Notes under the pieces: generated by a model
The model's database searches: none
Seen by the model: the letters and a program-made list of their open reading frames with translations, nothing else
Told to the model about the DNA's origin: nothing
Made by a program: the position numbers and the translations under genes
Assembly (NCBI GenBank): GCA_032718475.1
Contig: JAUCBJ010008204.1
Location: forward strand, 1-64,000
Direction: 5' to 3'
From: Nemertoderma westbladi
Lineage: Eukaryota > Animalia > Xenacoelomorpha
Length of the DNA stretch: 64,000 bases
Part shown: piece after piece, positions 4,454 to 53,099 of the stretch
Numbering within the stretch: the first letter of the stretch is position 1
Layout of the letters: the number at the start of each line of letters is the position of its first letter

Positions 4454-7012
4454 CTATCTGTTCCTCTGGGGATAGTTCCCCCTGGCGTCCTCTTCCCTGG
4501 GCCGTTTCTTGGTTATCACCGTTCCTCTGGCATCATCCGCTTTCTGCTTTCGGACCTTCGCCGCCACCTCCCTGCTGATCCCGGTCGTTGGCTCCTTGGG
4601 CGCTGGTGTTATTAGTGCCCGATACCGCTTCGCCGGTGGCCCCTCAGAGTGGCCCGGTTGTCTCCCTCTGGTGGCGTCCCATAGGATCATTTTCATTGCC
4701 TTTGGTACGTGCTCCGCCAAGAAATCCCTAAACTCCCTTCGGTTCTCTGGCGTCCACCTGTCCAAATACCTTTGCGTGTTCATCACTCCAGCGTACGACG
4801 CCGCCGTTGCTACCTCTTGGTAGGTAAACGGTAGCCTCCGCTTTATGATTTCCATGTGAGTCTCCTGATTGATAAGGAAGAAACCCCACTTGAACTCCTG
4901 GGCCTTCATGCGCTGGCGCGTCATGGCCCCGACGTCGGCCCACTCCTCGAATCTTGTGAACTTCTCCTCGTCGTTCATCCAGTCGCACTCGCGTCCGTAG
5001 TGTCCCCGAAAGTGGCACTTTGGACATCGGTTATGCAACCGTGGACACGCCCCCATCCTGTGGCTTGGTTCTCTGCAATAGAGACAAAAGGTTCCCTTTT
5101 GGAACCGGTATAGGCAGCTGCTTTCCCGATGGGTCTGTCTCCCACAGTAGTCGCAGCCGAGTACCAATGTCTCCCGTCCCACCTCGTCTTTCGTCCCAAG
5201 CGATCTCCGCGGTCTGTGGAGTCGCTGGTAGGCGAACTTCTCTACGTTGGTCTCTCTATCTACGTCGATCTCTCCGCCCCTCTCGGGCATCGTCTCCCCG
5301 AATACTATCCGTGGTGCCGTCCCCGGTTGCTCGCCCAACCTGATGGTGCTCCCCGCGAAATCCATCGCCGGCTCCTCGTGCACCCAGGTCCGCTTGCCGG
5401 ATCTGTTCCAGAAGGCCCTCGCCCCACTGGCCGTCACCACCCTTCCGCCAACCCAGTCCGTGTCCGAGTGGCCTATCCTCTCGATGGGCGGCATCTCTCC
5501 GAACTCGTCGTCGTCGTCCTCCTCTTCTGGCAGTGTCTCCAACCCCGGTATCCCGATGGATCCACTATATCCCTTTCCGCCTTGGCTCTCCCCCGTAGCT
5601 CTCCATCCCTCTAGCTCCCTTAACTTCCTTGGCGGTTGGTCGCCCTCGGCGCCCGCTGGTATGGGCATCGTTTGCAGCCCCGACGTCGACTGTTTCGGCG
5701 ATCCCACCGTCCATCCCAATTCTCGCCCTAGAGACTCCCCCGAACTTCCTGATGAAGTCCAATGAAGTTCGTCTAGGCCTGCCTGTTCCTCGAAGCCGTA
5801 ACTCTGTGTCCTGGCCTCCTCTTCCCTCTCCTCTGCTTCTATCCTCTCCCGTCTAGCGACTTCTTCCAGTCGCTTTGCTTCTCGTCTATCCGTCTCTAGC
5901 TGCTCCCATCTCTGATACGGTGTATCTGTCTCCCTGTCTACCAGATGTCGGCTGTTGTAGTACACCGACTCGCCCTTCAGCCCCGGGTGGTCTACCAGAC
6001 CGTCAAAGGCCGTCTTAAAAGGCTCTCCTGTAGCTTAGGGGTGATCCCGATAACAGAAATGCCCCTGGTTCCCTCTCGATAACCACAGTCATGAATAAGT
6101 TGAGCAAACTTATCATCATCCAGTCCTCCAGCAAGATATATCGCTTCTGATATACCTTTATCGCTCCCCTGCGGAACTGATATACCTCCTGCTTTCCTGG
6201 TCTCGCTCCCCACTTTAGCGAGTTCGCTAGTTCTGCTCCGTATTCTTCCCTAAACTTCCCCCAATCCATCGGTTTGTGGCATACGAGCCCCAATAATTGG
6301 CCCATTGCCACCGCCCCGCATTGGCCTGTGTTTTCGACGCGTGTTTTACCCCCAACCCATCCGGTGCCGTCATAGCCATAAAGACTTTCTGCATATCCAG
6401 GAGGTTGGTGGCGTCCGGACCGATGATCCTCTCCGCGTCCTCGCGAATCGCCGATCCCACTTTCGTCGTCGACTTCTCTCTCACTAAGACCTGTACCGCT
6501 TTCGGTATCCGGTCTAGTTTCGGCCCGTCCTTCTTCCCATACGTCCCTAGGTCGAATAAGAAGATGTCCCCATTTGGCGCGGCCAAATGTAGGAGTATGG
6601 TCCTGGCCGACCCCAGAGTTCCTCGTCTCGAACCCGCCTCGTCTTCCACGGTTCCCTCATCATCTAGGATCATATATCCTCCTCTGTTGACGGACTCTAT
6701 GAATCTCTTCCAGTCCTTCCTCGGTGATTCCCTCGGGTACTTCGGAATCCTGAACTTCGCCTCATCCCCTTTCACCACGTAGTGGAAGTGTTGGAAGATC
6801 GCGTTGTCCAGCGACGGCGTCCCGTAGGTCCCGACCAGCCGCTGTTCGTGCATCTCCCTGAAGTGATCCTGCAGCGCTCGCGCCGCGTGACCCCTTTCCA
6901 ACCTCTCGTAGTATCCTCTCGTCTTCTCTTCCGGATGCCTCTCGGTGAAATCCACCAGTATCTCCTTTCCTCCTGACTCCGCCTTTCTCTTTCTGATCAA
7001 CTTACTCGCCAT
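4454..7012 (-). pseudogene. Accessory ORF of outer element: DEDDy-type 3'-5' exonuclease domain plus three CCHC zinc knuckles (~850 codons, two frameshifts near 6315 and 6030)
   Basis: ORF pieces 7012-6227, 6311-6015 and 5965-4454 join by frameshifts. Motifs ILDDEG (ExoI), LLHLAAPNGDIFLFDL, KVGSAIREDAERI (ExoII), NLLDM, AMGQLLG, W..RP...Q.RYILLED (ExoIII-like) resemble WRN/EXD/Mut-7. Knuckles are CDYCGRQTHRESSC, CLYCREPSHRMGAC and CPKCHFRGHYGREC. Confidence 0.8.
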
Positions 7013-7504
7013 TCCGAACGTTCACTCGCTCACCTGCAAGGTGGTGCCTTACCAAGGCGCAATACAGATGAGTGATGTATCTAAGATGTTCTGTACGGTT
7101 CGATAATGGCCTATTTCCTACTTAACTGCGCCTTTTAACCTAAATTATTCCTAATTAATTTTGAAGCTAGTAAATGAGCGTAATTTACAATTTCTGTCCG
7201 TTACTTTTATTATATTCTAGAATAACTTTCCTTGTGTTGCCATTATTTTACAACTTTCAGCCCTATTCTGTTTATTTATCTATTTAATTTGATTCTACTG
7301 TCCTACTACTTACTACTGCCTATGGATTATTCTATTCTCTAATCCACATTCTGGCCTACTCTGTGGGTCTATGCAGTACAGCAGCATGCGTCGTGTGGCC
7401 ACACGACTTACCCAGCTGTACTCATATGCCCCCCTCTCGCTACTAACGCTACTAACTGCTAACTAATATCTATATCTATATCCCCTTTTACCTCTTACTC
7501 TCTC

Positions 7505-8045
7505 TCTTCTAACTAACGGTACTACGTACCCTCTAACTCTAACTCTTCTAACTAACGGTACTTACGTACCCTCTAACTCTCTAACTAACTAGCGGTACTT
7601 ACGTACCCTCTAACTCTCTAACTAACTAGCGGTACTTACGTACCCTCTAACTCTCTAACTAACTATCGGTACTACGTACCCTCTAACTCTCTGACTAACG
7701 GTACTTACGTACCCTCTAACTAACTATCGGTACTACGTACCCTCTAACTCTAACTAACTAGCGGTACTACGTACCCTCTAACTCTCTGACTAACTAACGG
7801 TACTTACGTACCCTCTAACTAACTCTCTAACTGGCGGTACTACGTACCTCCTAACTAACTGACTAACTAACGGTACTTACGTACCCTCTAACTAACTCTC
7901 TAACTGGCGGTACTACGTACCTCCTAACTAACTAACTAACTAACGGTACTTACGTACCCTCTAACTAACTCTCTAACTGGCGGTACTACGTACCTCCTAA
8001 CTAACTAACTAACTAGGTACTACGTACCTTCTAACTAACTCTCTG
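7505..8045 (-). repeat. Tandem array of short GGTAC-loop-GTACC hairpins with GTTAG-rich spacers, downstream of pol
   Basis: Repeated ctaactaacggtac(t)tacgtaccctctaac units of ~30-40 bp. Confidence 0.9.
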
Positions 8046-8188
8046 CCTACTAACTGCGTACCTACCATGTACTATTTTTTTTATTTTATTTTATTTTTTC
8101 TATTTTGTTTGTGGGAAGGGCGTCTCGCCCTCAATCCCACCCCCCTCAGTCCAAAACTTGGACGACTAAACTCGACTCTAACTCCAAG

Positions 8189-10493
8189 TTAAGGTGCCCC
8201 TTCTAGCAGACAGCATTTGCCTACTGCTCTCCTGTAGGTTTTCCTGTCCTTCGCACCTATCTTTCCACCTATCCGCACTTCTACCGATCGGACTCTTCCG
8301 TCCTCGTCGGAGTAGGTGCCTACAACTCTCGCCAACCGCCATTGGTTGTTGATGATAGTATCATCCGTAACGATTACGAGATCTCCTACTCTTAACTCCC
8401 TGTTCGGCTTCCTCCACTTGCTTCGCTTATGGAGCGTGGGTAGGTATTCCTCGACCCACCTCCTCCAATACTCTGCGCTTATTGCCTTTGCGACTTTCCA
8501 ACTTTGGCGGGAGTGTATGTCATCTGGGTCTACACCCCGCATATCGATGGTCGCTGGCCTTTCCATCAGGAAATGGCTAGGCGTCAGCACGTCTAGTGAC
8601 TCAGGGTCATCATTCTCCGGATATAGCGGTCTGCTATTAATGATCCCCTCGCACTTCGCAAGTACTGTCCGTAAGACGTCCTCAGTGACCATGTGGGTGT
8701 TCATTAGCTTCGTCATTAGACGCTTTGAACTGCCCACCAGTCTCTCGACGCATCCTAGTGTATGTGGTGCATACGGCGTCCTTCTCTCCCACTTTACTTG
8801 TCGTTGTCTCATGGCTGCCCTGACTTCTTCTCCCTCCAAGGCCTCTGCCATCTCACTCTCTGCGCCCACAAAGTTGGTGCCGTTGTCGCTGTATATCACT
8901 GCGATCGTCCCACCTTTGCGGTCCCTAAACCTTTCTAAGGCGTTAATGAACGCTGATGCGGTTGCATCTTGGGCGAGTTCTATCCCTACCGCCCGCGTAT
9001 TGTTGCATACGAAGATAATGCCGTAGCGTTTCTCCGTGTGTCGCATCACTTTGATCTTGATCGGCCCGAACATGTCCACACCGCAATGCGTAAATGGCGG
9101 GTCGTGCTGTCTTACCCTACTCGCCGGTAGTGGCGCCATCTCCTGTACGGCTCGCTCCTTCTTCGCTCGTTGGCAGGTCTGGCACTGCCCCACTACCGCT
9201 TTTACCTTCTTCCTCAGTTGTTTGACCCAATAGGTCCTCCTTATCTCTGTGAGGGTTCGGTTGGTGCCCCCATGTAATATCGATTTGTGGGAGTCCCATA
9301 TAATCTGGTGGACTATTGGCGATCCTGTTGGAATGATGATGGGTTTCGGTGGTACGACTATGCTGTTGTTGTATCCCACCCTAGAATTCATTACTAGAAT
9401 CCCGTTGTCATTGAGTTGTGGCGACAGCGTAATCAGCTCGCTGTCCCGTCGTAGGTGCTGTTGGTTACCGACGCATTCCACCTCGTCGCCGTAGTTCTTC
9501 CGTTGTTCATAGCGGATCACTGCCTTGGCCGCTCCTTCCAGATCTATGGTTGTCCTGATCTTCTTGTCCTTGCCAACTCCCGCAAGGAAATTCCCGAAGG
9601 CTCTCCAGTACGCCACTAGTTTCTTGGTCTTATACCAACTAGAACTGTAGCTGAGGAGTTTATCCGTCGGGTTATCGCACAGTTCCCGTCCTGGTTGCAC
9701 GTCCCTAATCTCCCTCACCATCTGGGAGTATATCTCTTCTCCCTCTGAATCTCCCTCTTCTCCTTCTGATACTACTTCCGAGCCCGGGTCCACCTTCCTC
9801 ATCGGCGGCCAGGCCTCCTTATCGCTCAGAAATTGTGGCCCATGTTGCCACAATACTTCCTTCTTCAAGAAAGTGTGGCGTACCACGCCCCTTGACAACA
9901 AGTCCGCTGGGTTATCGTCTGTTGGGCAGTAGTGCCACCTTTCCAATTCTGTACTCGCCCTTATTTCGTCCACTCTATTCGCGACGAATATCGGGTATCT
10001 CGTCCTTTCGTTGTGTAGCCAACCAAGCACTACCATGGAGTCCGTCCAGTAGTGTGTCTCCACTATGTTGGGAATAGTATCCACTAGGTAGGCTGTGGCT
10101 CTTACTCCTAGTCTCGCGGCTGTCAATTCTAACTTAGGAACTGATGCTGAATCTGGTGGCGTTGACTTTGCTTTACTAAAGGCTAGTCTTGGCTTATGAG
10201 CCCCCTCTCGTTGTACTAAGTAGAGTGCCGCTCCGTACGCTTCCAACGATGCGTCGGAGAACATGTGTAGGTCCAGATTCGTCATGTTCCCATCCGGGAA
10301 ATACACCCGTGGCATGTTGTATGTTCCCATCTTCTCCAAGTCTCCTGTCCACTTGCTCCACTGCTTCTTGATTTCCTCTGGTACCTCTACGTCCCACTCA
10401 TCTTTCAATTTGTATACTCTCTTGAGTATCTGTTTCCCCGTGACTAATAATGGGGATGCTAGGCCTAGGGGATCGTATATCCTTGCTATATAC
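8189..10493 (-). CDS. Outer pol, 3' part: RT thumb/RNase H, integrase (HHCC + DDE) and C-terminal domain
   Basis: YDPLG, FSDASLEAYGA, VPKLEL, WTDS, NPADLLSRG; H..ILH...C..C; GVDMFGP, SDNGTNFVGA, ERLVG; WVEEYLPTLHKRSKW. Removing the insert plus one TATAC restores the in-frame reading KRGYVSYIARIYDPLG. Confidence 0.95.
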
Positions 10494-11023
10494 TGTTAGC
10501 TTATCCAATTCCGCTAACACAAACCCATAGAGTGAGCCATAAAGCAATATTGGGAGCCTATTGTCAGCCCAGTAAACGGGGACAATAGGCCCCAAAGGAG
10601 ACACACACAATAAGGGTCAGGGGTTACTCCCCTGACAAGAGAGAGAACAGCAAGGGCGAAGGGAAGCACTTCAGAGGGGGGCAAAGGGTGCCAACAGGGG
10701 TATCAACCAATCAGAGGGGGGAAAGGCATCGATTGAGTAGCAATAAGGCCACCGTGCAATATAACCAGTTACCAGTAATCATACCGGTCAGTTATTCAGT
10801 TTACTCAGTCAGATCAGTAGGGTGGAACGGGGACTTCTGTCACCGTCCGCTACCGCCATCATATTATTCATACTTATATTACCTGTTGTGTTATACTATA
10901 TATCAGACTATTATACCTTATACATATAACCGGACACCAGAACTATTTTACCTTTCACACACGGCGGGGACGCGTGGATAGAAAACCCAAACGGATAAAC
11001 CGGGATCCGTAGATCCCGTCACA
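10494..11023 (+). repeat. 5' LTR of inner element
   Basis: tgttagc...cgtcaca; only one substitution seen versus 16530-17059. Confidence 0.97.
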
Positions 11024-11032
11024 GTGACAGAA
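11024..11032 (+). promoter_or_regulatory. Putative self-complementary primer-binding site of inner element (GTGACAGAA)
   Basis: No TGG/tRNA complement; exact reverse complement of TTCTGTCAC at 10835-10843 in its own LTR. Confidence 0.7.
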
Positions 11033-11111
11033 CTAGATCCGCCCAGCTGCCCTGACAGAGATAGAATAGAGCTACCGTCCTAGCTAGCGACGACCAGCTA
11101 CCAAAGGCGAG

Positions 11112-14100
11112 ATGAGCCGAGAGAAAGGAACGACACCGCCGCGGACCCCGGACGACGATCTAACGATCCGCGAGGCCACGGCGAGACGATACGAACCCAC
11201 GACGCCGGTCGATGCTACGCCGACCACGTCGACGCACGTTGACGCCACGTCGATAACGAGCAACACGGCGAACCAAGGTGTGGGGGGTCGTCTACCAGGA
11301 GAGAGCGAGTCGAGTAGAGGAGACGAGTCGGGAGGAGAAGAAAAAGACGAGTCGACGCGGAGCGAGGGTCGACATACCGATGTCACCGGTCCGCCACAGG
11401 CCGAGGACGACAAACGGTCCACCGGAACGGCGACGGTGGGGCCGTCGGTACGACGTCGGACCCGGAGAGACAGAGGAGAGGTCGGCGACGAGGACGTCGG
11501 GGTTTCTGATCGACTTCGACGGGCCTACAACGCGACCCGGGAACTACTAAAGGAGGCCAAGGAGGGGGCGAGGATAGACGAGGTCAGGATGACAAAGGGA
11601 CTAGGTGAGTCGGACAGATACTTTGATCACCTAGTGTGTTCTGGGCAGAGAGAACTAGCAGAGTTGAGGGCGTGGGGAGTTGCCTTCGAACTGTTTAAAC
11701 TATGGGAATGTGGGGGTATGGAACCTAGTGTAGTGTACATAGGGCCATACTTAGTCGATGCCAGGGAAGTTAAGTTAGTGGGTTGGGCGGGACCGCACGA
11801 GGGCGAATCCGAGGTTAGCTCCGAGGATTCGGTCTCGTCGGTCAGCGAGAACCCCGGAAAGCGGGGGAAAGTTAGTAGGACGGAGGGGCGACGGGAGTCC
11901 GTCGCAACCGGTAAGTCTGCTACATCCTCCGCAAAAGAAAGAAGGGTGCGGGAGATAAATCTGGCGTATGGAATAGAAGTGGCGGCGGCAGAGCAGAAAG
12001 AGTTAGAGAGGCGACTGAGTGAGGAAACCGCGTGGTTGGAGAGAGAAAGAGAGTGGGCAAAGGAAGATAGAGAGAGAGTCGAGGAGTGTAGAGAGCGGGA
12101 GATGGGAGTAGAGAGCGAGTCGGCAAAGCGGTCTGAGGTGCTTGCGAGAGAGAGGGCCGAGCGAAGTTTACGAAAGTGCATAAAGAGAGAGATAGAGATA
12201 GAGCGTGAGCGGGATGATTTGTGTGCCCAGATAGGGAGGCTTGCGCAATATCAAGCCAAACTTAAACGGCGCCGACTAGAACTGGCGCGGTTGGAGATAT
12301 CAGAGAGTGAGCCCCCACTTACAGGCACCGGGCGAGAAAACCAGAACTGGTGTAGCCATACGGGCGGGGGGGGTAGTAGTAGTACGTTAGAAGCAGTTAA
12401 TATTAATAGTACCGTAGTAAATAACCCTAATCCCTTTATTACAGGAAATAATATTTTACCGGGTAGTAGTAATTTAAATTTAAATACAAATACTCTAAAT
12501 AATAACTTCAATTCAAACCCGCAAAATAATTCGAATAATAATTTAAGTTTAGAGAATAGTAGCCACCTAAGTAATTTAAATAATTTAAATAATAATTCCG
12601 TTTCGAATTCTAATAATTTAATTGATTTAACAAATAATAATGGGAATGGTGCTATTAATATGAGCGTGTCGGACGTACATAACCCGGCAGACGGTGGCCT
12701 GGTAGGCCACGTAGTTAGTAAGCAGGAGGTGGCAGGGTTGAGCCAACCAGACGGCGGCCTGGTAGGCCACGTAGTTAGTAGGCAGGAAGTGGCGCGGTTG
12801 AGCCAACCCGAGGTGGGCCTGGTAGGCCACGCAGTAGTAGAGAGAGAGGCGGGGGTGAATAGACCCAGCCGTAGTGGAGACAGTGCGTCGACTAGAGAGG
12901 GGTGTAGAGACGAAGTAAGAGATAGTGAAGTTAGATGTGGCGAGTGGGGGGGGGGCTACGGGCGCCCCACCACGTAAGACTAGTGGCGAGAGAGGGGGGG
13001 CAGAGAATGCCCCACAAGAGGGGTGTAGAAGTGTAGTAAGAGGTAGTGAAGTTAGAAGTGGCGGGTGGGGGGGGGGCTATGGACACCCCACCGCGAGAAG
13101 TTAGTAGAGAGAGAGGGGGGGCAGAGAGTGTCCCACAGCCGTCAGCGGATAATGCGAGGGCCGAAATAGGTAAACCGCAACAACCGGCGACGGAGAGTAA
13201 TAGGGGGATTGCGAGTATCCCCAGCGGCGTGCGATCGAGCAGAGAGAGGCAGGTTGACGTCGCGAGAGGGCAGGCGAAGCGTCGAGCCCGACCAGAAGAG
13301 AGAAGAAGAACAGTGGAGTTTAACCGGGAGGTCGACGAGAGATCTCATGAGCCGGAATACTGCACTGAAAAGAGAAGAAGAGGAGATAGTAGAAAAGGTG
13401 TCGCCACGAACGATAGCAGTGCGAGGACGGATAACGGACCGTCGATAGTAGAGATGGAGTCAGGGAGCCAGTGGGGTCGAACTTCGGGAGATTGCCGTCG
13501 CCCCGGAGAAACGCACCGCACGCCAGGAGGGGGGTACAGGACGTACCAGTACGAAGAAGAGAACAGGAGAGGGGATCGAGGGGAAACTTCCCGACGGGAT
13601 ATAGCTGCCGATCGAGAGTACGGTAGTCGCGGGGAGATTCGAGATTCGCGAAGAATAAACTTCGGTTCGGAAGGGCACATGCAGACTGCAGGACATACTG
13701 TAGGCCTTACTGCACATACTATTATAGGCCATGCTGGGAGAGATAGAGTAGGCGATGGGGTAGCGCGAACGACGGGATTAAACCCGGAAGTCGCGGAGTA
13801 CATACCGGTAGGTAGGCGAGAGGTAGGTAGGCCTATATCGGTACAGCAGCATGACTATAATACACAGGGACATAACATATATCCAGGGGAGGGGGGAGTT
13901 ATTGGAGATAGACGTATGGGCCCCAATGTATTAACATCAACCCCAGCACCAAACATACCGGCTGGGGGGGGGACAGGGTGACATTCCCCCATCACAATAT
14001 CGACAATATACCCCGATAGGAGCAAGAATATCGAACTCCCTGGACGAGAGCAGGTCGTGCGGACAGTCACCACCACACGCGGCCATACAGGGGACTACCA

Positions 14101-14834
14101 GTCCACAGTTAGCTGGTAGTAGGGCCACACCGTGGCAGGGACAGAAAGAAAATAACACTATATATAATAAACACAATCCCAATATACCCAGTAGGCCGAG
14201 TCTAGACAACCAAAACATTAAATCGGTACATATAAACCTAAGCGCGATACGTGAAGGACTATACAGGAAACGCTATAATCCAGGATTCCAATGTCAATTA
14301 CATCGGGACGGAACCCATAAGACCAGGAGTTGCAAGTACTGGCAAGCGTTGCCCAAACGAGATCGTGTAGCCTACACAGACGCAAACGGACTATGTCATC
14401 GATGTGTGGTAAAAGGACACAGATCCGGAGAGTGTTGGAAAGGGAGAGGATATGAAAGGATTAAACAAGGGGCAGAGAAGCCTATTAGCAAACATAAGGG
14501 AGTCGGGAAAGTAGGAGGAGGCGTGTTGCATACACACGCAGGACGGACACAGTGCGAGGGGGCATTGCACGGACAGACACCGCGTATACCGAGGGACGAG
14601 CGGGGGTCGTCGAGGGCCTTAATGCCAGCGCACATACGAAGGGGGAGGCCAGCAAAGGTAGCACCGAAGAGAGTGTGGCGAAGAGTTAGAGGACGTATAG
14701 GAGGGCAGCAGGAGAGTGCCCACTGGAAGAAGGGGCACGTGAGAGTTTTTAGTCGTCCAAAGTTTTGGACTGAGGGGGGTGGGAATGAGGGCGAGACGCC
14801 CTTCCCACGCACAAAATATAAAATAATTATTTAA
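11112..14834 (+). CDS. Capsid-less Gag-like protein (acidic N-terminus, coiled coil, Asn-rich linker, 20-aa repeats, two Cys/His knuckles); frame breaks only at G-runs
   Basis: Homologous to outer 23245-18800. Frame shifts at G-runs near 12950, 13070 and 13970; then open to 14834 through CQLHRDGTHKTRSC and CHRCVVKGHRSGEC. Confidence 0.75.
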
Positions 14835-14869
14835 TTAAAAATAAGAAAATAATTAAATAATAGAGTAGG

Positions 14870-16110
14870 TAGAAGTTAGGTAGTAAGAGTTAATTAGTTA
14901 GTTAGTTAGTTAAAGGAGGGTACGTGTAGTACCGTTAGTAGAAGAGTTAGTAGAACGGTACGTGTAGTACCGTTAGTAGAAGAGTTAGTAGGAGGGTACG
15001 TGTAGTACCGTTAGTAGAAGAGTTAGTAGGAGGGTACGTGTAGTACCGTTAGTAGAAGAGTTAGTAGGAGGGTACGTGTAGTACCGTTAGTAGAAGAGAG
15101 TTAGAGGGTACGTAAGTACCGCTAGTTAGTTAGAGTTAGAGGGTACGTAAGTACCGATTAGAAAGTAAGAGTTAGAGGGTACGTGGTACCGTTAGTTAGA
15201 GGTGTTAGTAGTAGCAGCAGAGGGTTGTGGGCACCGTAAGCGCCACGTAGTTAGAGTTAGTAGGGAATGCGCTGAACTTAGTGGGGCACGGGCGTGATGA
15301 CGTGTTTGATGTAAGAGCAGGGTATGTTAATTAGGGTGGGTGCCGGGCACAAGAGGTGCCGGGCACAAAAAGAGTTAGTAGTAGAGTTAGTTGAGTTAGT
15401 AGAGAGTTAGTAGAGTTAGTAGAGTTAGAAGGTGCCGGGCACAAGAGGTGCCGGGCACAAAAAGAGTTAGTAGAGTTAGAAGGTGCCGGGCACAAGAGGT
15501 GCCGGGCACAAAAGGGGTTAGTAGAGTTAGAAGAGAGTTAGTAGAGTCAGTAGTAGTTCACATAATTAACGTACCCACTCTGCCGGCACTCAGAGCGTCA
15601 CGTGTAGGCGATGAGACGTAAAGGGGGAGTAGAGGAGTAGAGAGGGCACATTGGGTGCCAGGTAGTAGAAGAGTAGAGACGGGCACATAGGGTGCCAGGT
15701 AGTAAGTTAGAGAGGTAGTAGTGTAGTAGAGAGGGCACATAGGGTGCCAGGTAGTAGAGTAGAGCAGAGGGGGCACATAGGGTGCCAGGTAGTAGAGCTA
15801 GAGAGGTAGTTGAGTAGTAGAAGGGCACATAGGGTGCCAGATAGTAGAGTGGTTGTGGGCACCGTAAGCGCCACGTAGTTAGAAGAGTGGAGTAGAGTTA
15901 GCAGAGCTAGTGGAGTAGAGTTAGTAGAGCTAGTTAGCAGAGTTGGTAGACTCAGAGGAGTCAAGTAGAGTTAGTAGAAGTAGAAAGTTAGTAGGAGTTA
16001 GTTAGACTTAGTAGAGAGTTAGAGTCAGTAGAAAGTTAGAGGCTCTCAGTTAGAGCTAGAAGTAGTAAGAGTTAGTAGTTAGCAGAGTTAGTTAGATAGT
16101 TAGAGTTAGT
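14870..16110 (+). repeat. C-poor GTTAG/GTAG-rich region with tandem hairpin units
   Basis: Repeats of ggtacgtgtagtacc, ggtacgtaagtacc, gtgccgggcac and ggcacatagggtgcc separated by agagttagtag spacers. Confidence 0.85.
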
Positions 16111-16529
16111 AAGCAGTAGGTAGATAGTATGATAGCACAGGGGTAGCATTAGAGATTAAAGCCTTAGGGAGTGACAAGAGAGGGATGGGGTAACTAGTGC
16201 GGAGTGCGAAGAGAGCGTGGGCGCAATTCAAGTGTGGGGGAGGAGAAGTGAGAGGAAGAGTGTGGGACGAGGAGGTCCGGGAGTATGCGAGAGTTGGAGT
16301 AGAGTGGTGAGAGTGTTGGGGAAACAAAAATTGTGTGAGAGAAGCGCACGATCGGCCCGACACGAGACGCCAGAGGGTAGTGACATCATACCCATAGGGA
16401 GCGGCCTGGAAAGCCGACTCCGAAAAAATAGACCCACCCCACACCCGATAATAGATCGGGATCCAGCGGAATTGTAGCGCACTTGAGTTGGATGCTATCT
16501 TCTCACCGGGAAGATAGCATGGGGGGGAG

Positions 16530-17059
16530 TGTTAGCTTATCCAATTCCGCTAACACAAACCCATAGAGTGAGCCATAAAGCAATATTGGGAGCCTATTGT
16601 CAGCCCAGTAAACGGGGACAATAGGCCCCAAAGGAGACACACACAATAAGGGTCAGGGGTTACTCCCCTGACAAGAGAGAGAACAGCAAGGGCGAAGGGA
16701 AGCACTTCAGAGGGGGGCAAAGGGTGCCAACAGGGGTATCAACCAATCAGAGGGGGGAAAGGCATCGATTGAGTAGCAATAAGGCCACCGTGCAATATAA
16801 CCAGTTACCAGTAATCATACCGGTCAGTTATTCAGTTTACTCAGTCAGATCAGTAGGGTGGAACGGGGACTTCTGTCACCGTCCGCTACCGCCATCATAT
16901 TATTCATACTTATATTACCTGTTGTGTTATACTATATATCAGACTATTATACATTATACATATAACCGGACACCAGAACTATTTTACCTTTCACACACGG
17001 CGGGGACGCGTGGATAGAAAACCCAAACGGATAAACCGGGATCCGTAGATCCCGTCACA
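16530..17059 (+). repeat. 3' LTR of inner element
   Basis: Preceded by PPT gggggggag; near-identical to 10494-11023. Confidence 0.97.
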
Positions 17060-20000
17060 TATACGATACATAACCCCTCTTCGTGTGGATGTCTGCGCCC
17101 TCCTGGCTCAGCTGATACTTCAGTTCGTCTGTCTCTCTATCCCACACGATTCCCAATGCCTTCTGCTGGGATTCCGTTCTCTTAATCGCCATGTCCTGCC
17201 CTTTGGCTGTTGTGGGATTATCCATGGTCGATTCTGGTTTCCTGTCCTCTATGGCTTTGATAAATTCTTCCGAACTGGATTGGAATTTGGTCAGGTTGAA
17301 GCCGGATCCTTTTAGGATATCGCGAACCTCGCGCCCTGTATCCAGTATCTCCTTAACCGTATTTCCAGACTCCATTCCGTCGTCTACGTAGAAGCCGCGT
17401 CGAATCATATCGACGGCCCTACTGCTGTATCTATCTTCCTTCCCCTTTACTGTGTCTCTCACTGCCATAGTCGTCGTAAATGAAGACGACTTGGCCCCCA
17501 TGTTCTGTACTACCATCTTATATGCCGGTATTATCGACGGTTCTTCCTCGCCGTTATACCATAAGAAGCGCTGACTGTCGCTATCTTCCTCCATTACACG
17601 GACTTGGTTGAACATGCCTTCTATGTCACACGTGAAGGCGTGTTTCCCATTTCTAAATCTAAGTAACACCTCTATGCCCGAATTGTATATGTTTGGGCCT
17701 TCTAACAGGTAGTCGTTTAAGCACTTTCCGTCGGTCTTTGCCGATGCGTCGACTACCATCCTTAGTTTACCTTTCTTTGGGTCTAAAGCCACGTGCAGTG
17801 GCAGGTAATATGTCCTATCCGTGTTCGGCTCGTCGACCAGTAACTCCACGGCCCATCCTTTCTCGACGTACTTCTTAATTGTTCTGTGGATGTACTCATT
17901 CTTCTCGGGGCTCCGTTTTAGTGTTTGTTTCAGTTTGCGGAGTCTCGTGAGTACCATCCCCCTATTGTCGGGCAGCGGTATCTTCGGTAGTTTCCATACC
18001 ATTCCTATAGTATACCGTCCCTCATCGCATGTCATTGATTCCTCCACGCTTTGTAGAGCCTGCTTGTCTTCTACTGAGGTCCCGACTCCGGTTTCTTTCA
18101 GTCCCTCGAAATCCTGTCTGAGCAGTCTTTTAAGCTGCTCCTCTGCTCCCTCGTCACCCATTTCCTGCATTGTTCCCGCGAACATGCATCCTGATGTCTC
18201 CGACATCCTAAATGGTATCTTGCTCTTAATTGGACCACTCAGCGTCCACCCGAATGGTGTTAATATGGCCACCGGGTCACTCTGCTTGTCTTCGCCGAAG
18301 ACCGTTTGCATTCTTTCGTGGGCCGTTGGGCAGTCCATACCTACTATGATGGATACCTTGCTAACGTCCACGTCTGGGATTGAGAAGTCAATGTCGTCCA
18401 GGAATTTATATTGCTCGACCTCGATGTTGGTTGGTCGCCTGGCATTGATATTAATTGACTCTATCACTTGGATGGGGTCGATGGTTGCCCCATAGTCGCA
18501 TCCTGGTGCCACTGCTGCAATTGCGCACCGTCCTGTTCTCATCTCCAGGATCTCATCTTTGCTAGAGATGGTTGTTACCGCCATCCTGCTTGGCCTCGTT
18601 CTCAATCCTATCTCCTCGGCAACCCATTCCTCGACTAATGTGAAGGCAGCTCCACTATCAACCAGCATTAGCGTTGTTACTGATCGATTGCCTTCCCCAA
18701 TCACTCGCACGGGTACTACTCCAAGTAGCACCGTTCCTCTCTTCTTCGCTCCTACTGTGCTCGTCGCCATCGTTTGGCCTCTCCTTTGACCAAATTTTAT
18801 CGGCCTCTCCTTGCACTCCCTTGCTCTATGTCCACTCATTACACATCGCGAGCAGATTTTATTGCTGAACGCATAATCTATCTGATCCTGCCTAGGTAGC
18901 GCCTGCCAGTACCTGCAGTTCATGGTTTGATGAAGCGCATTTGCGTGTAGCTGGCATTTGCTCTTTGGGTCGTAGCCCTCTTTATACAGTGCATTGCGTA
19001 TCGCAGTTGCGTTTGTACCAAAGTCCCTACTATTCTTATTGTTTGGATTTAGCCTACTGGGCGTACTGGGGTTATGTTTATTCGTGTTGTTATTGTTTCC
19101 CTGTCCGTTCCATGGTGTTGTCTTATCCTCGGCTAGCTGTGGACTTGCAGTCCCCTGCGTCGCTGCATATGGCAATGATTGCCTGAGTCTCGGTAATGCG
19201 TTTGATGTGTTGTGCTCTGGTTTCGGTCTATGGTAGTCTGTCTTCGGTCCCTTTCCCAGGCTGTCTTCGCTATAGACTGGGTCAGTTATTAGCTCAGCCT
19301 CGTAGTTTAAGAAGTTTGACATTTCTTCTAAACCCGGTTCCGCACCCTTCTTATCTCGAGTGGAGAAGGCGATTTTCCTCCACTTGTTGCGCAGCCAGCT
19401 CGGTAGTGCCTGCGCTATCGTGGTGATGTTGTTGGACGCGTTGAGCTCGTATGGCGCGTCTAGCGTCTTCAGCACGATTAGCGCCTTTTCAACTTTGTTA
19501 GCAAATGTCTTAATGCTAACGGGATTATCCTGTAGGCCACCCGATGTTATGCCTCTCAACGTCTGTCTGATGATCTTGGCCGGGTGCCCGTATTCCCTAT
19601 CCAGTGCCCGCCATGCTGTCGTGAAGCCGCCCTCTATTCCTTGATATTGCCTCACGATGTCGTATGCTGGGCCTCCCGTGTACACTTGTAGATACTTTAG
19701 GCACTCCGCCTGCGTCAAGTTTTTTGTTAGTATTTCGTTACTATACATGCGCCGAAACTGTAGATATTCTTCCGGCCTACTCCCATCGAATTTGAATGGT
19801 TCCACGGGTGGTAGCTCGATCCTCGTTTTCAACGCATCGATCAACGTGGCCATCCCCATCGCCTGTGCTTCCAATGGATTCGATGGGTGCTGTATAGTTT
19901 CTCCTGTCTGGTGCGTTCCGTCTGTCCTATTTCTTGACTTTCTCTGACTTGGGTATGTCATCGGGGGTAGCGGCCCCCTCCATATTTCTGTGTCACACGA

Positions 20001-23000
20001 CCTATTCTCATCCAAGGGTCTCGTTGTTCTTGCTCCTATCGGGGTATATTGTTGATATTGTGATGGGGGAATGTCACCCTGTCCCCCCCCCCCCCACCGG
20101 TATGTTTGGTACTGGGGTTGATGTTAATATGTTGGGGCCCATGCACCTATCCGCAATAATTCCCCCCTCCCCTGGGTATATGTTATGTCCCTGCATGCTG
20201 TAGTCATACTGCTGTGCTGGTACCGGTATAGGCCTATCAGCTTCTGGCCTACCCGCCGGTATGTATTCCGCGACTTCCGGGTTTAATCCCGTTGTCCACG
20301 CTATCCTATCGCCTACATTGCCTCTCTCAGTATGGCCTACGGTATGTGCAGTAAGGCCTACAGTATGTCCTACAGTCTGCATGTGTTGTTCGGGATCGAA
20401 GTTTATTCTTCTCGAATAATCCTCCCCGCGGCTACCGTATTCTCGATCGATAGGTGTATTCCGTCGGAAAGTTTCTCTTCGACCCCCCTCTCTACTGTTC
20501 TCGTCTTCGTACCGGTACATCGCGTACCCCTCTCTCGGCGCGTAGTGCGCCTCGCCGGGTCGCATCTCTCCGGGGCGACGGCAATCTCCCGGAGTCCGAC
20601 CCCACTGACTCTCTGTTCTCATCTCGACTACCGACGGCTCGCTATCCGTCCTCGCTCTTCTATCGTTCGCGGCGATACTTCTACTACTGTCTTCTCTTCT
20701 TCTCCTTTCAGTGGAGTATTCCCGCTCGTGAGATCTCTCGTCGACCTCCCGGTTAAACCCCACTGTTCTTCTTCCCTCTTCTGATCGGGCTCGACGCTTC
20801 GTCCGCCCTCTCACGACGTCAACCTGTCTCTCTCTACTCGGTCGCACGCCGCTGGGGATACTCGCAATCCCCCTATTACTTTCCGTCGCCGGTTGTTGCG
20901 GTTTACCTATTTTGGCCCTCGCATTATCCGCTGACGGCTGTGGGGCACTCTCTGCCCCCCCCTTTTCGCCGCTAACTCGCTGTTGTGGGGTCCCTGTAGC
21001 CCCCCCCCCCCCCCCCCCACTCGCCACATCTAACTTCGCTATCCCTCACTACCGCTACTATATCCCTCTCTAGTCGACACATCAACCCTATCGCGGTCGG
21101 GTCTATTCACCCCCGCCTCTCTCTCTGCTATTGCGTGGCCTACCAGGCCCTCTGCTCCCTGCCTACCGACTATGCGGCCTACCAGGCCCTCGCTGGGTCC
21201 ATCCAACCCAGCCACTCCCTGCCTACCAACTACGTGGCCTACCAGGCCCTCGCTGGGTCCATCCAACCCAGCCACTCCCTGCCTACCAACTACGTGGCCT
21301 ACCAGGCCCTCGCCGGGTCTACCTAACCCAGCCACTCCCTGCCTACCAACTACGTGGCCTACCTGGGCCCCATCTGTCTGGCCATACACGCCCGACGTGT
21401 TTACATTAATAGCACCCGTATTGGGAACGGAATTAACTTGTTCGTTCGAAATAAAATCATTTGAATTATCTTGTAAATTCGGGCTTGGCTCATTAATTAA
21501 ATTATTTGAATTATTATTATTTTGGTTATTTGGATTATTTTGCGTAGCTACATTAATATTAGGATTATTTTCTACATTAATATTAGGATTGTTCTGATTT
21601 AAATTTAAATTACTACCACTAGGCAAAGTATTTCCTGCAATAAAGGTTTGATTAGAATTATCCCATACGGTACTATTAATATTAACCACGTCTACTGTAC
21701 CATTATCATTATTACCCCCCCCCCCCCCCCGCCCGTACGGTCACACCAGTTTTGGGTCTGTCGTGCGGTCCCTGTAAGTGGGGTATTAATAAATGTATCC
21801 ACGGCCCCTGGCTCCTCTAAAATACTCGAGCCTGTCTCGCTCTCAGACGCCCCCGCCCGCACCAGTTGCAGCTCGTGCGCGCGTCTAACCCTATGTTCCC
21901 CAAGCTCACTTTGGCGTCTCTTTAATTCCTCCTGGTCTCGCTCGGCTCCTGTCATTCTCCTCTCACACTCCCGCGTGTCCCGCTCAGCCAACTCTACTAC
22001 TTTCCTAGCACTCTCCCTTCGCCTCGCTTCACGCTCCTTACGTTCACTTTCCTTTCTCGCCTCATACTCCTTGCGTTCCGCCTCACGCTCTTTGCGTTCC
22101 CTTTCTTCCCTTGCCTCACGTTCCCTACACTCCTTTTCCTCCTTTTCCTCACACTCCCTAAGGCCCCTCAAAGCCCTTTCGGCCCTCTCTCCGGTTTCTC
22201 TAATCAATGCCGCTTCCCTCTCTAGCCGCATTCTCCCCTCCTCTAGCCGTTTATCCATTTCCCTCTGACCTTGCTCTATCAGCTCGAGACGGTACGCGGC
22301 ACCTGCCTCTCTCACCCGTCTTTCTTTCGCGGAGGATGTAGCAGACTTATCGGTTACGACGGACTCCCTCCGCCTTCCCGATCTACTAGCTTTCCCCCTC
22401 CTCCCGGAACTCCCTCCGACCGACGAGGCCGAATCCTCGGGGTTAACCTCGGATTCGCCCCCTTCAGGTCTGTTCCAACCCATTAATTTTATACCCCGGG
22501 CATCGATTAAATATGGCCCTATGTACACTACACTAGGTTGTATACCCCCATGCCGCCATGAGTCATACAGTTCCTCGGCAACCTTTCTCGCTCTCTCCTC
22601 GGCCAATTCTCTCTGCCCGAAACGCATTAGATAGTATAAATGTCTGTCCGACTTACCTAGTCCTGACTTCAGTTTTACCTCGTCTATCGTTTTCCCCTTT
22701 CTGGCCTCCTCTAGTAGTCTCCGGGTCGCGTTGTAGGCCCGTCGAAGTCGCTCAGAAACCCCGACGTCCTCGTCGCCGACCCCTCGTCCGTCTCTCCGGG
22801 TTCGACGTCGTACCGGCGGCCCCACCGTCGCCGTTTCGGCGGGCCGTCCGTCGCCCTCGGCCTGTGGCTGGCCGGCGACATCGGTATCGACACCTCCGTC
22901 GTCTCTCCGGGTCCTTCCTCGTACCGTCGGCCCTTCCGTCGTCGTCTCGGTGGGCCGTTCGTCGCTCTCGGCCTGTGGCTGGCCGGCGACGCCGGTGCGT

Positions 23001-23851: not shown

Positions 23852-24301
23852 GCCTTTTAACCTAAATGGCACATGCCTTCGCCCTACACCCACCCTAGCC
23901 GCTTATGCTATGTCTGTATAATGTATGGTTTGGTCTGTTGGTAGGATAAGCAGATAGGACTGGACTGACACTGAGGATGTACAGATGTAAGTAAGAGTAA
24001 CGAACGGAGTAGGCCTACCGATGGTATTGACAGACTGGAGTAAGCCGGTAGTACCCAGTCTGCCAGTCCTGCAGTCCGGTCTGCCGGTAGTCCAGTCCCT
24101 GTCAGCCTGTTACTAGTTACTGTACGACTTAGTTAAGACTTGTACGTCTGTACGTGACGTCTCGTAGGTCAGTCAGTAGGCTGGTAGGTAACGGAATAGG
24201 CCCCTACTGGAATACGGGCTGACGTGATACTGCTGTACTGTGATAGGGATAATACAGTAATATAGTATAAGCCTATTACTTTAGACTGTTAGATATTAAA
24301 T

Positions 24302-25036
24302 ATGACTGATGTAAAGAAACTCCCGACTATTCCGGAAACTTTACTTCGACGTCGCAAACACGCGACCGAACGTAAAGTCCGCTCCGACAAACACCAGCAA
24401 AAGCAGAAGAAAGCCAACCGGGACAAACGAAAGATCGTATTCAAACGTGCGGAGGCCTACGTGAAGGAATACCGAACGGCGGAGAGAGACCTGATCCGTA
24501 TGAAACGAGACGCGAGGAAGCACGATAACTACTACGTACCGGACGAACCCAAGTTGGCGTTCGTTGTTCGAATCCGTGGTATCAACGGAGTCCATCCAAG
24601 AGTTCGGAAGATTCTACAGATTCTTCGACTCCGTCAGATAAACAACGGGGTCTTTATAAAGCTCAACAAGACGAGCATTCGATTGCTACGCATCGTAGAG
24701 CCTTATATAACCTACGGGTATCCGAACCTCAAGTCTATCAGGGAGTTGATCTACAAGCGAGGCTACGGTAAGATTCAGCAGAGAAGAGTAGCTCTTAGTG
24801 ATAACAGTTTGATTGAAAACTCTTTGGGCAAATTCAATATCATCTGCGTGGAGGATCTAATACACGAGATATTCACGGTCGGGCCGCACTTCAAGGAGGC
24901 GAATAACTTCCTGTGGCCCTTCAAACTGGCGGCCCCGCGTGGTGGCCACAGGAAGATCGGAATACATTACATCGAGGGGGGAGACAACGGTAATAGGGAG
25001 AATAAAATCAACCGGTTGGTCAGGAAGATGAACTGA
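24302..25036 (+). CDS. RPL7: 60S ribosomal protein L7 (uL30), intronless CDS
   Basis: [71 protein letters not shown]. Confidence 0.97.
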
Positions 25037-26046: not shown

Positions 26047-26178
26047 CTCATGTGAAGAATACCAGGATTTCACTTTTCGGTCGACTTTTTATTGGAATTT
26101 TATATATGCCCCAAGATTTTTTATTTTTTTAAATCTATCTTTATTAAGTGTTTTATAGCGCTTATTTCTGTCTTATAA
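26047..26178 (+). mobile_element. Truncated MITE copy (same family as 57410-57689)
   Basis: catgtgaagaataccaggatttcacttttcggtcgacttttt...ttttatagcgctta matches 57434-57542; that family ends in ggtattcttcacatg. Confidence 0.7.
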
Positions 26179-28239
26179 CAACAAGTGGAACCACTTCATA
26201 TATAACAACCCACTTCATATATAACAACAAGTGGAACCACATCATATATAACAACAAGTGGAACCACTTCATATATAACAACAAGTGGAACTACTTCATA
26301 TATAACAACAAGTGGAACTACATCATATATAACAACAAGTGGAACCACTTCATATATAACAACAAGTGGAACCACTTCATATATAACAACAAGTGGAACT
26401 ACATCATATATAACAACAAGTGGAACCACTTCATATATAACAACAAGTGGAACCACTTCATATATAACAACAAGTGGAACTACATCATATATAACAACAA
26501 GTGGAACCACTTCATATATAACAACAAGTGGAACCACTTCATATATAACAACAAGTGGAACCACTTCATATATAACAACAAGTGGAACTACATCATATAT
26601 AACAACAAGTGGAACCACTTCATATATAACAACAAGTGGAACCACTTCATATATAACAACAAGTGGAACCACTTCATATATAACAACAAGTGGAACCACT
26701 TCATATATAACAACAAGTGGAACTACATCATATATAACAACAAGTGGAACCACTTCATATATAACAACAAGTGGAACCACTTCATATATAACAACAAGTG
26801 GAACCACTTCATATATAACAACAAGTGGAACCACTTCATATATAACAACAAGTGGAACCACTTCATATATAACAACAAGGGGAACTACATCATATATAAC
26901 AACAAGTGGAACCACATCATATATAACAACAAGTGGAACCACTTCATATATAACAACAAGTGGAACCACTTCATATATAACAACAAGGGGAACTACATCA
27001 TATATAACAACAAGTGGAACCACTTCATATATAACAACAAGTGGAACCACTTCATATATAACAACAAGTGGAACCACTTCATATATAACAACAAGTGGAA
27101 CCACTTCATATATAACAACAAGTGGAACTACATCATATATAACAACAAGTGGAACCACTTCATATATAACAACAAGTGGAACCACTTCATATATAACAAC
27201 AAGTGGAACTACATCATATATAACAACAAGTGGAACCACTTCATATATAACAACAAGTGGAACCACTTCATATATAACAACAAGGGGAACTACATCATAT
27301 ATAACAACAAGTGGAACCACATCATATATAACAACAAGTGGAACCACTTCATATATAACAACAAGTGGAACTACATCATATATAACAACAAGTGGAACCA
27401 CTTCATATATAACAACAAGTGGAACCACTTCATATATAACAACAAGTGGAACTACATCATATATAACAACAAGTGGAACCACTTCATATATAACAACAAG
27501 TGGGACCACATCATATATAACAACAAGTGGAACCACTTCATATATAACAACAAGTGGGACCACTTCATATATAACAACAAGTGGGACCACGTCATATATA
27601 ACAACAAGTGGAACCACTTCATATATAACAACAAGTGGGACCACGTCATATATAACAAGAAGTGGAACCACATCATATATAACAACAAGTGGGACCACTT
27701 CATATATACCAACAAGTGGGACCACATCATATATAACAACCCACGTCATATATAACAACAAGGGGAACTACATCATATATACCAACAAGTGGAACCACAT
27801 CATATATAACAACAAGTGGGACCACATCATATATAACAACAAGTGGAACTACTTCATATATATCAACAAGTGGAACCACTTCATATATACCAACAAGTGG
27901 GACCACATCATATATAACAACCCACGTCATATATAACAACAAGGGGAACTACATCATATATACCAACAAGTGGAACCACATCATATATTACAACAAGTGG
28001 GACCACATCATATATAACAACAAGTGGAACCACTTCATATATAACAACCCACTTCATATATAACAACAAGGGGAACTACATCATATATAACAACAAGTTG
28101 GACCACATCATATATAACAACAAGTGGAACCACTTCATATATAACAACCCACTTCATATATAACAACCCACTTCATATATAACAACAAGTGGAACTACAT
28201 CATATATAACAACAAGTGGAAGGAACCACTTCATATATG
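26175..28239 (+). repeat. 27-bp minisatellite (agtggaaccacttcatatataacaaca), left block
   Basis: Roughly 75 tandem units with a few recurrent variants and occasional 19-bp units. Confidence 0.97.
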
Positions 28240-30265: not shown

Positions 30266-30620
30266 TCATATATAACAACAAGTGGAACCACATCATATAT
30301 AACAACAAGTGGAACCACTTCATATATAACAACAAGTGGAACCACTTCATATATAACAACAAGTGGGACCACTTCATATATAACAACAAGTGGAACCACT
30401 TCATATATAACAACAAGTGGGACCACTTCATATATAACAACAAGTGGAACCACTTCACATATAACAACCCACTTCATATATAAGAACAAGTGGAACTACA
30501 TCATATATAACAACAAGTGGAACCACATCATATATAACTACAAGTGGGACCACTTCCTTATATAACAACAAGTGGAACCACTTTCACTTCATATATAATG
30601 AAAAAGGAAGTGGAACCACT
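30265..30620 (+). repeat. 27-bp minisatellite, right block
   Basis: Same unit as 26175-28239, decaying into unique sequence. Confidence 0.95.
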
Positions 30621-39049: not shown

Positions 39050-39431
39050 AAAGGTGAAACATAGACCTGGAAACGTAGACATGTCCGCAATTTACGCCAT
39101 GGTCTCACATCAGAGCTGTCAATACCATGATCTGAAAAAACTATTGTGCTCAATATCCTCCTGAACTTGTCCGTCTTTATCAACTCACTACAATGAAATG
39201 TTATTGTACTAACTATCACGGTCTTTTTCTAATGAAAATTATGAATGAAAAATTTATGAAAATAATTATCAGACCTGGAGCAACTGTCTGAATGTCAGTA
39301 GTGAACCTATCTCTCAGTGGAACGGTAGGTATGTGATAACATCCGGTTATTAGAGTTTAATACCATCTGACAAGATCTGAGCCCTGAGCCAACTTGAGTC
39401 AGCAAAGGGCATTGTAAAATAAGCGAACATC

Positions 39432-44808: not shown

Positions 44809-45549
44809 ACTGGTCGTGTCTTATGTACCGATCATATAAACTGGTCCTTTAAGTTTTCGGCTGTTAACTTCGTCATTTAGCCTACTGGTTGAGTTGTGTG
44901 TAGGTTTGGAAATTTATTTGATTATTAAATGGCCTTTCAGTTCCCGGATTAAGGAATACTTTTTGATTTTCACAGTAATTTTTTCATTCCATGTCAACAA
45001 TGATCTGCACGGGATATTTTTATATATAAATAGAATGGCGTTGAGTTGAGGAAATATTCGATGGGTTTGTCCAACCAACCCAGCCAACCATTATTTTCTT
45101 TTTAAACATCAAACCAGCAGATGCTGCAGTTTTCGATTTCCCATAAATTTGTTCATTTCAATCATTTTATTTAGTTTACTTCACGTAGTATTTAACGCAG
45201 TATTTAACGCAGGCTTGAGATAAAACATTGTATTTTGTATTATTAGAAAAAATAAAGTACACTCTTTCTTTATTTTATAAGAACAGAGTTTATAGGAGGA
45301 ACACGAGGCTCAAAAACACACACCATTATAACGAAAAGCAAAAAGGTTATATTACAGTTAGATGTATATAATTAGAATTAGTAATTTATAGTTCAATTCC
45401 AATAATAAAAAATTGCAATTAATAGTTGAGTGTAATATTATTACGCCTAGTAGAAATTAATTTTTAGTGTAAGATTAGTTCTAATAGTTCTTTAGTTTCC
45501 AGCTTAGAGGGTTTTATGGACTAATTTAATTTTAGAAGAGTAAGTTTTA

Positions 45550-52959: not shown

Positions 52960-53099
52960 GATCGGCTAGATTATTCGTTGTGTTCTGTCGTTATTAGCTT
53001 TAACTTCGATGAAAAGTGGAGGCGCAAGAACTACGTTCATGAAAACAACATAAAAACTTTGGGCTTCCGGTAGACTTGTAGTTATGATTTGCTTTTGCA

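Follow-up and report, generated by a model that had tools for sequence, protein, structure and literature searches.

The Tf1 retrotransposon starts minus-strand DNA synthesis from its own transcript: the first 11 nt of the RNA pair with its primer-binding site (PBS) and are cut free by RNase H (PMC7175516, excerpt). Tf1 requires a central primer-PBS duplex together with two flanking duplexes, a structure common to the Tf1/sushi group (PMC10085805 and PMC4600332, excerpts), and its PBS is copied into the cDNA's 3' end (PMC11042837, excerpt). Self-priming has also been predicted for Tcn1 (Ty3/gypsy) and for the copia TAR elements in work that called self-primers at LTR-PBS complementarity of at least 10 bp, so more than one origin of self-priming has already been proposed (PMC6317226, excerpt). 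Members of the Belpaoviridae are taken to be primed by host tRNA through an 18-nt PBS for tRNA-Arg or tRNA-Gly and have genomes of 4-10 kb; their replication is called poorly understood (PMC8742986). The accessible parts of PMC3601003, PMC6934838, PMC3286476 and PMC5408684 contain no case of Bel/Pao self-priming, and the terms primer, PBS, tRNA and self are absent from the accessible text of PMC3118150. A sequence-only reading of the DNA analyzed here knew of no described Bel/Pao case, and we found none by title or the start of the abstract; subscription papers, Repbase or GyDB entries and supplements could hold one.

Here, we describe two related LTR elements in a 64,000-nt stretch of Nemertoderma westbladi DNA (the window; contig JAUCBJ010008204.1). 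Their sequences carry the PBS signature of Tf1, so that they likely prime themselves, in a superfamily for which we found no such report and with a covarying candidate decoy added.

Results

Two nested elements of one Bel/Pao family

The window holds two LTR elements in opposite orientations, one nested in the other (Table 1). The inner LTRs are identical at 529 of 530 positions and the outer pair at 534 (2 mismatches, 7 gap positions), and both elements are young insertions. Inner and outer LTRs share 81% identity over aligned bases. The target of the inner insertion was the pol gene of another element of the same family, which lies in the opposite orientation (10488-10495 / 17055-17064), and the outer element measures about 14 kb once the nested copy is subtracted.

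The outer element encodes Bel/Pao-type Gag/Pol domains in PR-RT-RH-IN order: DUF1759 (E-value 4e-11), an aspartyl protease (2e-5), Peptidase_A17 (4e-38), Integrase_H2C2 (1e-13) and DUF5641 (2e-24), with RVT_1 below its cut-off (0.004). All 37 matches to the outer RT region carry PF05380 or PF03564 at 25-35% identity, a grouping made from these domains. No Ty3 or retroviral RT appeared among 5 weak PDB matches; no chromodomain was found in the outer integrase at E 0.01, its C-terminal part being DUF5641. The TG...CA LTR ends, target duplications and polypurine tract are compatible with Bel/Pao structure. The first gag-like frame of the inner element is 51% identical to its outer counterpart across 368 aa. 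By these features both elements belong to one Bel/Pao family, the outer assigned by its Gag/Pol domains and the inner lacking pol, and the Bel/Pao identity proposed earlier is borne out by the domain set and by the relatives of the RT region.

Every LTR in the window (10494-10519, 23851-23826 and both 3' LTRs) opens with an inverted repeat whose two 7-bp arms match perfectly across a 12-nt loop. The 5' end of U3 thereby contains TAACA, an end motif like that of Bel/Pao, and the true LTR 3' end is TCACA. Past the coding part of both elements lie tandem arrays of GTTAG/GTAG-rich units with periods of about 38 and 73 (14890-15200, 15340-16100 and 7490-8240).

Elsewhere in the window, several host genes are single open frames: RPL7 (24293-25036, +), a cold-shock-domain protein (39423-40400, +), a SAC3/GANP protein (47575-48657, -) and a ubiquitin-activating enzyme (49945-52965, -). 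This intron poverty is unusual for an animal. About 440 nt separate RPL7 from the outer 5' LTR, and among the 120 matches listed for it, mostly from animals, none exceeds 73% identity. The window also contains a 27-nt satellite of about 80 copies (26075-28240), a second short array (30265-30653), and inverted repeats of about 95-120 bp at 45548-47145 and 60079-60709, with arms 1.4 kb and 0.33 kb apart, which are possibly DNA transposons or MITEs.

Table 1. Positions of element features in the window (minus-strand features other than the coding regions are numbered in their own 5' to 3' direction).
Feature	Position	Strand	Details
Inner element	10494-17059	+	530-nt LTRs; 5-bp target duplication
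Inner 5' LTR	10494-11023	+	Ends TG...CA
Promoter-like set, inner 5' LTR	10707-10793	+	CCAAT 10707-10711; TATA-like 10758-10764; Inr-like TCAGTT 10788-10793
Candidate self-primer 9-mer, inner 5' LTR	10835-10843	+	TTCTGTCAC
R arm	10844-10857	+	Predicted partner of 10963-10972
U5 arm	10963-10972	+	Identical in both elements; predicted to pair with R arm or post-PBS CCGCC
U5 near-copy of PBS, inner	10974-10983	+	One bulged base; candidate decoy
Terminal U5 hairpin	11001-11018 and 23340-23320	+ and -	5 nt before PBS
PBS position, inner element	11024-11032	+	GTGACAGAA
Post-PBS CCGCC	11039-11043	+	Also in outer leader, 23298-23294; possible U5-leader helix
Broken gag-like frames, inner element	11088-14834	+	No pol
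Polypurine tract abutting inner 3' LTR	16510-16529	+	Identical 20 nt in outer element
Inner 3' LTR	16530-17059	+	Carries 9-mer copy at 16871-16879
Outer element	23851-3193	-	LTRs of 537 and 542 nt; own 5-bp target duplication
Outer 5' LTR	23851-23315	-	
Candidate self-primer 9-mer, outer 5' LTR	23485-23477	-	TTTAGTTAC
U5 near-copy of PBS, outer	23361-23352	-	9/9 Watson-Crick pairs; one bulge
PBS position, outer element	23314-23306	-	GTAACTAAA
Outer gag-protease-RT frame	17055-20123	-	DUF1759, aspartyl protease, weak RVT_1, YVDD; split by inner element
Outer RNase H-integrase frame	8189-10495	-	Peptidase_A17, Integrase_H2C2, rve, DUF5641
Extra coding region after pol, outer element	4454-7021	-	Split among several frames; as a lead only, three CCHC-like knuckles and a possible piece of a DEDD-type 3'-5' exonuclease
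Outer 3' LTR	3734-3193	-	Carries 9-mer copy at 3368-3360

The PBS position is complementary to the LTR of the same element

The point at which minus-strand DNA starts determines the right end of an LTR, and the 3' end of the primer must therefore pair at or within a few bases of position 11024 in the inner element. No TGG occurs from 5 nt before to 15 nt after either LTR end, so neither a tRNA PBS starting with TGG nor an 18-nt PBS complementary to the 3' terminus of tRNA-Arg or tRNA-Gly is present there. We read the first bases after the LTR as the PBS because the LTR end marks the minus-strand start and no TGG lies nearby.

In both elements the PBS is the exact complement of a 9-mer in the same element's LTR: GTGACAGAA pairs with TTCTGTCAC in the inner element and GTAACTAAA with TTTAGTTAC in the outer. 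The complement begins at the first base past the terminal CA of the LTR and stops at nucleotide 9. It was found once per LTR, and no complement longer than 9 nt was found anywhere in either element. From 20,000 simulated LTRs each, with the same dinucleotide make-up, the chance of a perfect 9-nt complement at offset 0 is 0.00055 for the inner element and 0.0023 for the outer, rising to 0.0028 and 0.0086 if any offset from 0 to 5 is allowed.

The sister 9-mers differ at 3 of 9 positions, and the PBS compensates all three changes, so that 18 of 18 pairs across the two elements are Watson-Crick. Three substitutions in each 9-mer would fall in matching columns by chance 1 time in 84; requiring the letters to match as well lowers this to 4.4e-4 under a uniform model, a value that transition bias raises. 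Pairing with the element's own partner is worth -11.9 (inner) and -7.3 (outer) kcal/mol, against only +0.4 and -4.1 kcal/mol when the partners are swapped. The two elements are relatives and thus provide one contrast rather than two independent cases, and the three compensated changes need not be three events. Because three of nine PBS bases have changed between sisters whose LTRs are 81% identical, a single host tRNA cannot read both sites. The complementarities, their coordinates, the missing TGG, the compensation and the GGGAC...CGT context around both 9-mers had all been put forward in the sequence-only reading, and each of them holds.

A primer made by splicing was considered and rejected, since no junction beats the unspliced 9 nt in either LTR: none of 732 LTR-intron GT/GC-AG junctions in the inner element reaches 8 nt of complement, and 3 of 638 in the outer element reach 8 nt and none 9. 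The end of the inner LTR and the start of its PBS also form a small palindrome (11019-11028, with 5 bp flanking a single base) able to mask the PBS; the outer version has one mismatch.

A covarying near-copy of the PBS in U5 is predicted to hold the 9-mer

Each LTR contains a near-copy of the PBS in U5, and PBS and U5 copy are direct near-repeats 50 nt apart. The U5 near-copies compensate the same three 9-mer changes (3/3). Their pairs with the 9-mer are Watson-Crick in 17 of 18 cases, the exception being one G-U pair in the inner element, which has 8 Watson-Crick pairs besides. Together with a helix between the R and U5 arms, the 9-mer/U5-copy pairing is predicted to give a stem roughly 19 bp long (-24.8 and -23.6 kcal/mol). 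The R-U5 region exceeds shuffled sequences in stability only modestly (z -2.1 and -1.5, with 7 and 16 of 200 shuffles reaching the native value). The GGGATC...GATCCC hairpin that ends both LTRs is as described earlier, and a U5-leader helix of -11.0 and -11.3 kcal/mol can be drawn in the two elements. The covarying U5 copy is absent from the sequence-only reading, and it opens two further explanations, self-priming by a 3' copy of the 9-mer and a structural switch.

In folds of the RNA, the 9-mer is paired with the U5 copy (P at least 0.5) in 11 of 16 cases and with the PBS (P at least 0.45) in 3, none of which has the upstream start. Forcing the PBS pairing costs 0-6.4 kcal/mol when the RNA begins at the 9-mer (8 folds) and 2.7-9.7 kcal/mol when it begins upstream. 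All three duplexes of the Tf1-type arrangement can be drawn here, and the PBS state is favoured in only 3/16 folds. In 11 of the 16 folds, the U5 near-copy is thus predicted to keep the 9-mer locked within a stem of R and U5. In both elements, purine-rich sequence lying upstream of the 9-mer (10818-10828) can pair with the post-PBS leader (11038-11045); this would lengthen the primer duplex if the RNA starts upstream, and the leader motif can alternatively pair with U5.

Promoter-like motifs point upstream of the 9-mer

Both LTRs contain a CCAAT box, a TATA-like motif and TCAGTT, which we take to match the general consensus for CCAAT, TATA and initiator (Inr) elements. Their order and a TATA-Inr spacing of 32-33 nt are kept in both LTRs, and no other promoter-like set is. 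The distance from Inr to 9-mer is 45 nt in the inner element and 66 nt in the outer. The motif set predicts a start at about 10790 in the inner element and near 23551 in the outer, upstream of the 9-mer in both. The conserved motifs, a motif reading and not a mapping, therefore argue against the earlier expectation that transcription begins at or just before the 9-mer. Neither AATAAA nor ATTAAA is present in either LTR.

Public DNA contigs contain a large and varied family

Contigs from public DNA runs revealed a large, varied family. Among the 32 pieces listed (708 further pieces exist), 20 reach the LTR end; they stop at the LTR end itself (5), at 11024 (1), 11025 (10), 11027 (1) or 11032 (3), some merely because the record ends. 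After joints at 11025, 11026 and 11032 the match resumes close to the beginning of gag, and these are therefore 5' LTR-leader junctions. Three listed pieces, from two runs and two studies, match the inner PBS exactly through nucleotide 9 and then diverge for 30-85 letters. These stop points indicate that the first two PBS bases are common, that the remainder varies among subfamilies and that differing leaders share the inner 9 nt exactly. No listed piece spans both the 9-mer and the PBS. Variant 9-mers are likewise absent from the listed contigs, and such variants may fall outside the 80% likeness threshold.

Within the U5-copy motif, the commonest contig variant is at 10976, at or beside the bulge, where pairing is kept by a shift. 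The variant 10978 A>G would yield a G-U pair, variants at 10977, 10979 and 10980 are the letters of the outer element, and gaps of ambiguous assignment are present at 10977, 10979 and 10981. In four runs, no variant reached 1% in 10963-10975. Coverage of 10831-10854 is far deeper than that of its flanks, which is not a copy count and is compatible with a conserved island; one run (X6) covers part of U3 only. Scans of collections for the LTR-end pattern gave 2 viral-contig and 18 metagenome-contig matches, and all 20 were rejected as chance matches without LTR similarity. Protein-based scans of viral contigs gave 8 and 496 pattern matches, none of which was confirmed.

A candidate exonuclease frame after pol

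A region of several frames follows pol in the outer element. One piece resembles a 3'-5' exonuclease in the ESM Atlas (feature score 0.90; 11-31% of the cluster's members carry PF01612; 145 shared features against 170 typical of true family matches), and the CCHC-like knuckles are an Atlas lead only (0.82-0.86). The exonuclease-like piece has no Pfam or PDB match, its single-sequence fold is uninformative (pLDDT 33), and among 1.84 billion proteins it has 2 uninformative matches. This broken frame is a possible exonuclease candidate.

Models for priming

A whole tRNA is excluded as primer and the element's own 9-mer is the sole full match found; we therefore take self-priming as likely, and minus-strand synthesis in both elements is probably primed by their own RNA in one version or another. 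We give about even chances to the Tf1-like version, with the 5' copy of the 9-mer as primer on the PBS. Here, the LTR 9-mer near the transcript 5' end would pair with the nine bases after the LTR, be freed at its 3' end and then be extended by reverse transcriptase; by analogy with Tf1, the element's RNase H would cut after the 9-mer. The RNA would adopt a locked state, with the 9-mer and R arm paired with U5 over about 19 bp, and a priming state, with the 9-mer on the PBS, the U5 hairpin and the U5-leader helix. The U5 copy would keep the RNA in the safe state until packaging, and the switch to priming would occur inside the particle, perhaps through Gag. The letter-for-letter match between PBS and 9-mer may be renewed in every cycle, when plus-strand synthesis copies the primer, and the U5 copy, in which a G-U pair and a bulge are tolerated, may be kept by selection on RNA structure. 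Such copying would explain why the PBS is strictly Watson-Crick and the U5 copy is not. The inner element, lacking pol, would take its enzymes in trans.

The Bel/Pao identity, the missing full-tRNA site, the compensated complementarity and the helices comparable to those of Tf1 are supported from the self-priming reading first proposed, and the start at the 9-mer is not. Several points argue against the Tf1-like version. The motif-predicted start lies 45-66 nt upstream of the 9-mer, and with a primer longer than the 9-mer, plus-strand copying would have to be halted in some way. At 9 nt the duplex is short, under the 10-bp limit at which self-primers were called in the accessible text of PMC6317226, and that of the outer element is also weak (-7.3 kcal/mol). 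The modelled 9-mer sits mostly on the U5 copy (11/16 folds against 3/16 on the PBS). The modest stability of the R-U5 region, the reliance on a single contrast and the partial fit of a tRNA-Asp 5' half to the inner site (below) also count against it.

An upstream promoter and a covarying U5 copy are jointly accounted for, better than by priming from the 5' copy, if the primer is the 3' copy of the 9-mer. A start at the Inr would put the 9-mer in R, at both RNA ends, and the U5 decoy would lock the 5' copy. Polyadenylation before the U5 copy would free the 3' copy of its decoy, and it would pair with the PBS of the same RNA or of a dimer partner, its 3' hydroxyl being made by trimming or cutting back. 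In two-strand folds, 9 of 12 cases pair the PBS with the 3' copy of the same element (P at least 0.69), and the 3' copy of the sister reaches P of at most 0.01 in all 12, but these folds charge nothing for joining ends 6-14 kb apart, and 3 of 12 fail; including the decoy lowers the pairing in the inner element (0.22), not in the outer (0.72). Neither LTR has the AATAAA or ATTAAA that polyadenylation would lead one to look for, and we know of no precedent for priming by a 3' copy, which we consider unlikely. The possible 3'-5' exonuclease frame would suit it, yet that frame is a single Atlas lead that failed four other checks. The fuller proposal, in which the R copy at the 3' end primes, the U5 decoy locks the 5' copy and the RNA tail is shortened as far as the duplex by a 3'-5' exonuclease that the element encodes, seems to us very doubtful.

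A host RNA fragment could instead prime, such as the tRNA halves predicted to do so in several copia lineages (PMC6317226, excerpt), with the 9-mer serving as an antisense gate by which the site is covered or opened. The proposal keeps some weight because a 5' portion of E. coli tRNA-Asp, cut shortly past the anticodon loop, matches 7 of the 9 nt in the inner PBS (offset 0); on the outer PBS the same tRNA, our one stand-in, gives at most 5 nt, at offset 2. The element's 9-mer reaches 9/9 in both, ARAGORN and Rfam detect no tRNA-like sequence in the elements, and every PBS variant would require its own fragment, with the 9-mer and U5 copy following, so we regard a host fragment as improbable. 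The C. elegans element Cer7 encodes a tRNA-like primer. A primer of that kind was sought with ARAGORN and Rfam and rejected: neither detected one, and a single snoRNA match (E 0.91) was due to chance. The dominance of the locked R-U5 stem in the folds would also be expected if the complementarity had a structural role only, in end-to-end circularisation for strand transfer, in packaging or in blocking early polyadenylation, or if it were a by-product of a copying event that homogenised U5 copy and PBS, near-repeats as they are, with priming achieved otherwise. However, the complement starts at the exact first base past the LTR, the position that the end of a primer has to occupy; the analysis turned up no other candidate for the primer, and chance alone is unlikely. 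We consider this last explanation very unlikely.

Discussion

Among described systems, the elements most resemble Tf1, Tf2, Tj1 and the Tf1/sushi group of Ty3/gypsy chromoviruses, with which they share a PBS complementary to their own LTR, the absence of a tRNA site, and drawable central and flanking duplexes. They differ in having Bel/Pao enzymes and no chromodomain match, 9 nt rather than 11, a predicted start upstream of the primer, and priming that is predicted from sequence. The covarying second PBS copy in U5 goes unmentioned for Tf1/sushi in the accessible text of PMC10085805, PMC7175516 and PMC4600332, on which these comparisons draw. The outer element is Bel/Pao by its domains without the tRNA-PBS feature expected of that group, and it carries a Tf1-like PBS signature yet is not a Tf1/sushi element. 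LTRs of about 0.5 kb, the gag-PR-RT-RH-IN order, a polypurine tract and an animal host are shared with the Belpaoviridae; the absent tRNA site and the length of the outer element (about 14 kb against 4-10 kb) are not (PMC8742986).

Self-priming of the TAR elements (Houba, Osr-1; Ty1/copia) and Tcn1 (Ty3/gypsy) of plants was also predicted from LTR-PBS complementarity. Those elements belong to other superfamilies and were called at 10 bp or more, and the accessible text holds no Bel/Pao case (PMC6317226). The rotifer elements Vesta and Juno likewise carry an extra frame after pol, a DEDDy exonuclease (ORF3) that may trim RNA 3' ends; they represent other lineages, and no link to priming is proposed in the accessible part of PMC5408684. 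The frame here is broken and a candidate only. If priming by the 3' copy with an exonuclease were true, LTR reverse transcription would have a third mode of initiation, without a tRNA or a cut at the 5' end.

The three-way covariation of 9-mer, PBS and U5 copy gives sharp predictions about the start and end of the RNA, what is attached to strong-stop DNA, and which of the two folds forms. Such elements would escape any annotation pipeline that insists on a tRNA PBS.

Bel/Pao is one of the three big groups of LTR retrotransposons. If self-priming is true of the family described here, a third superfamily would join Ty3/gypsy, where it is shown for Tf1, and Ty1/copia, where it is predicted, and loss of tRNA dependence would be a recurrent outcome. 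Elements that prime themselves may then also escape control by tRNA fragments.
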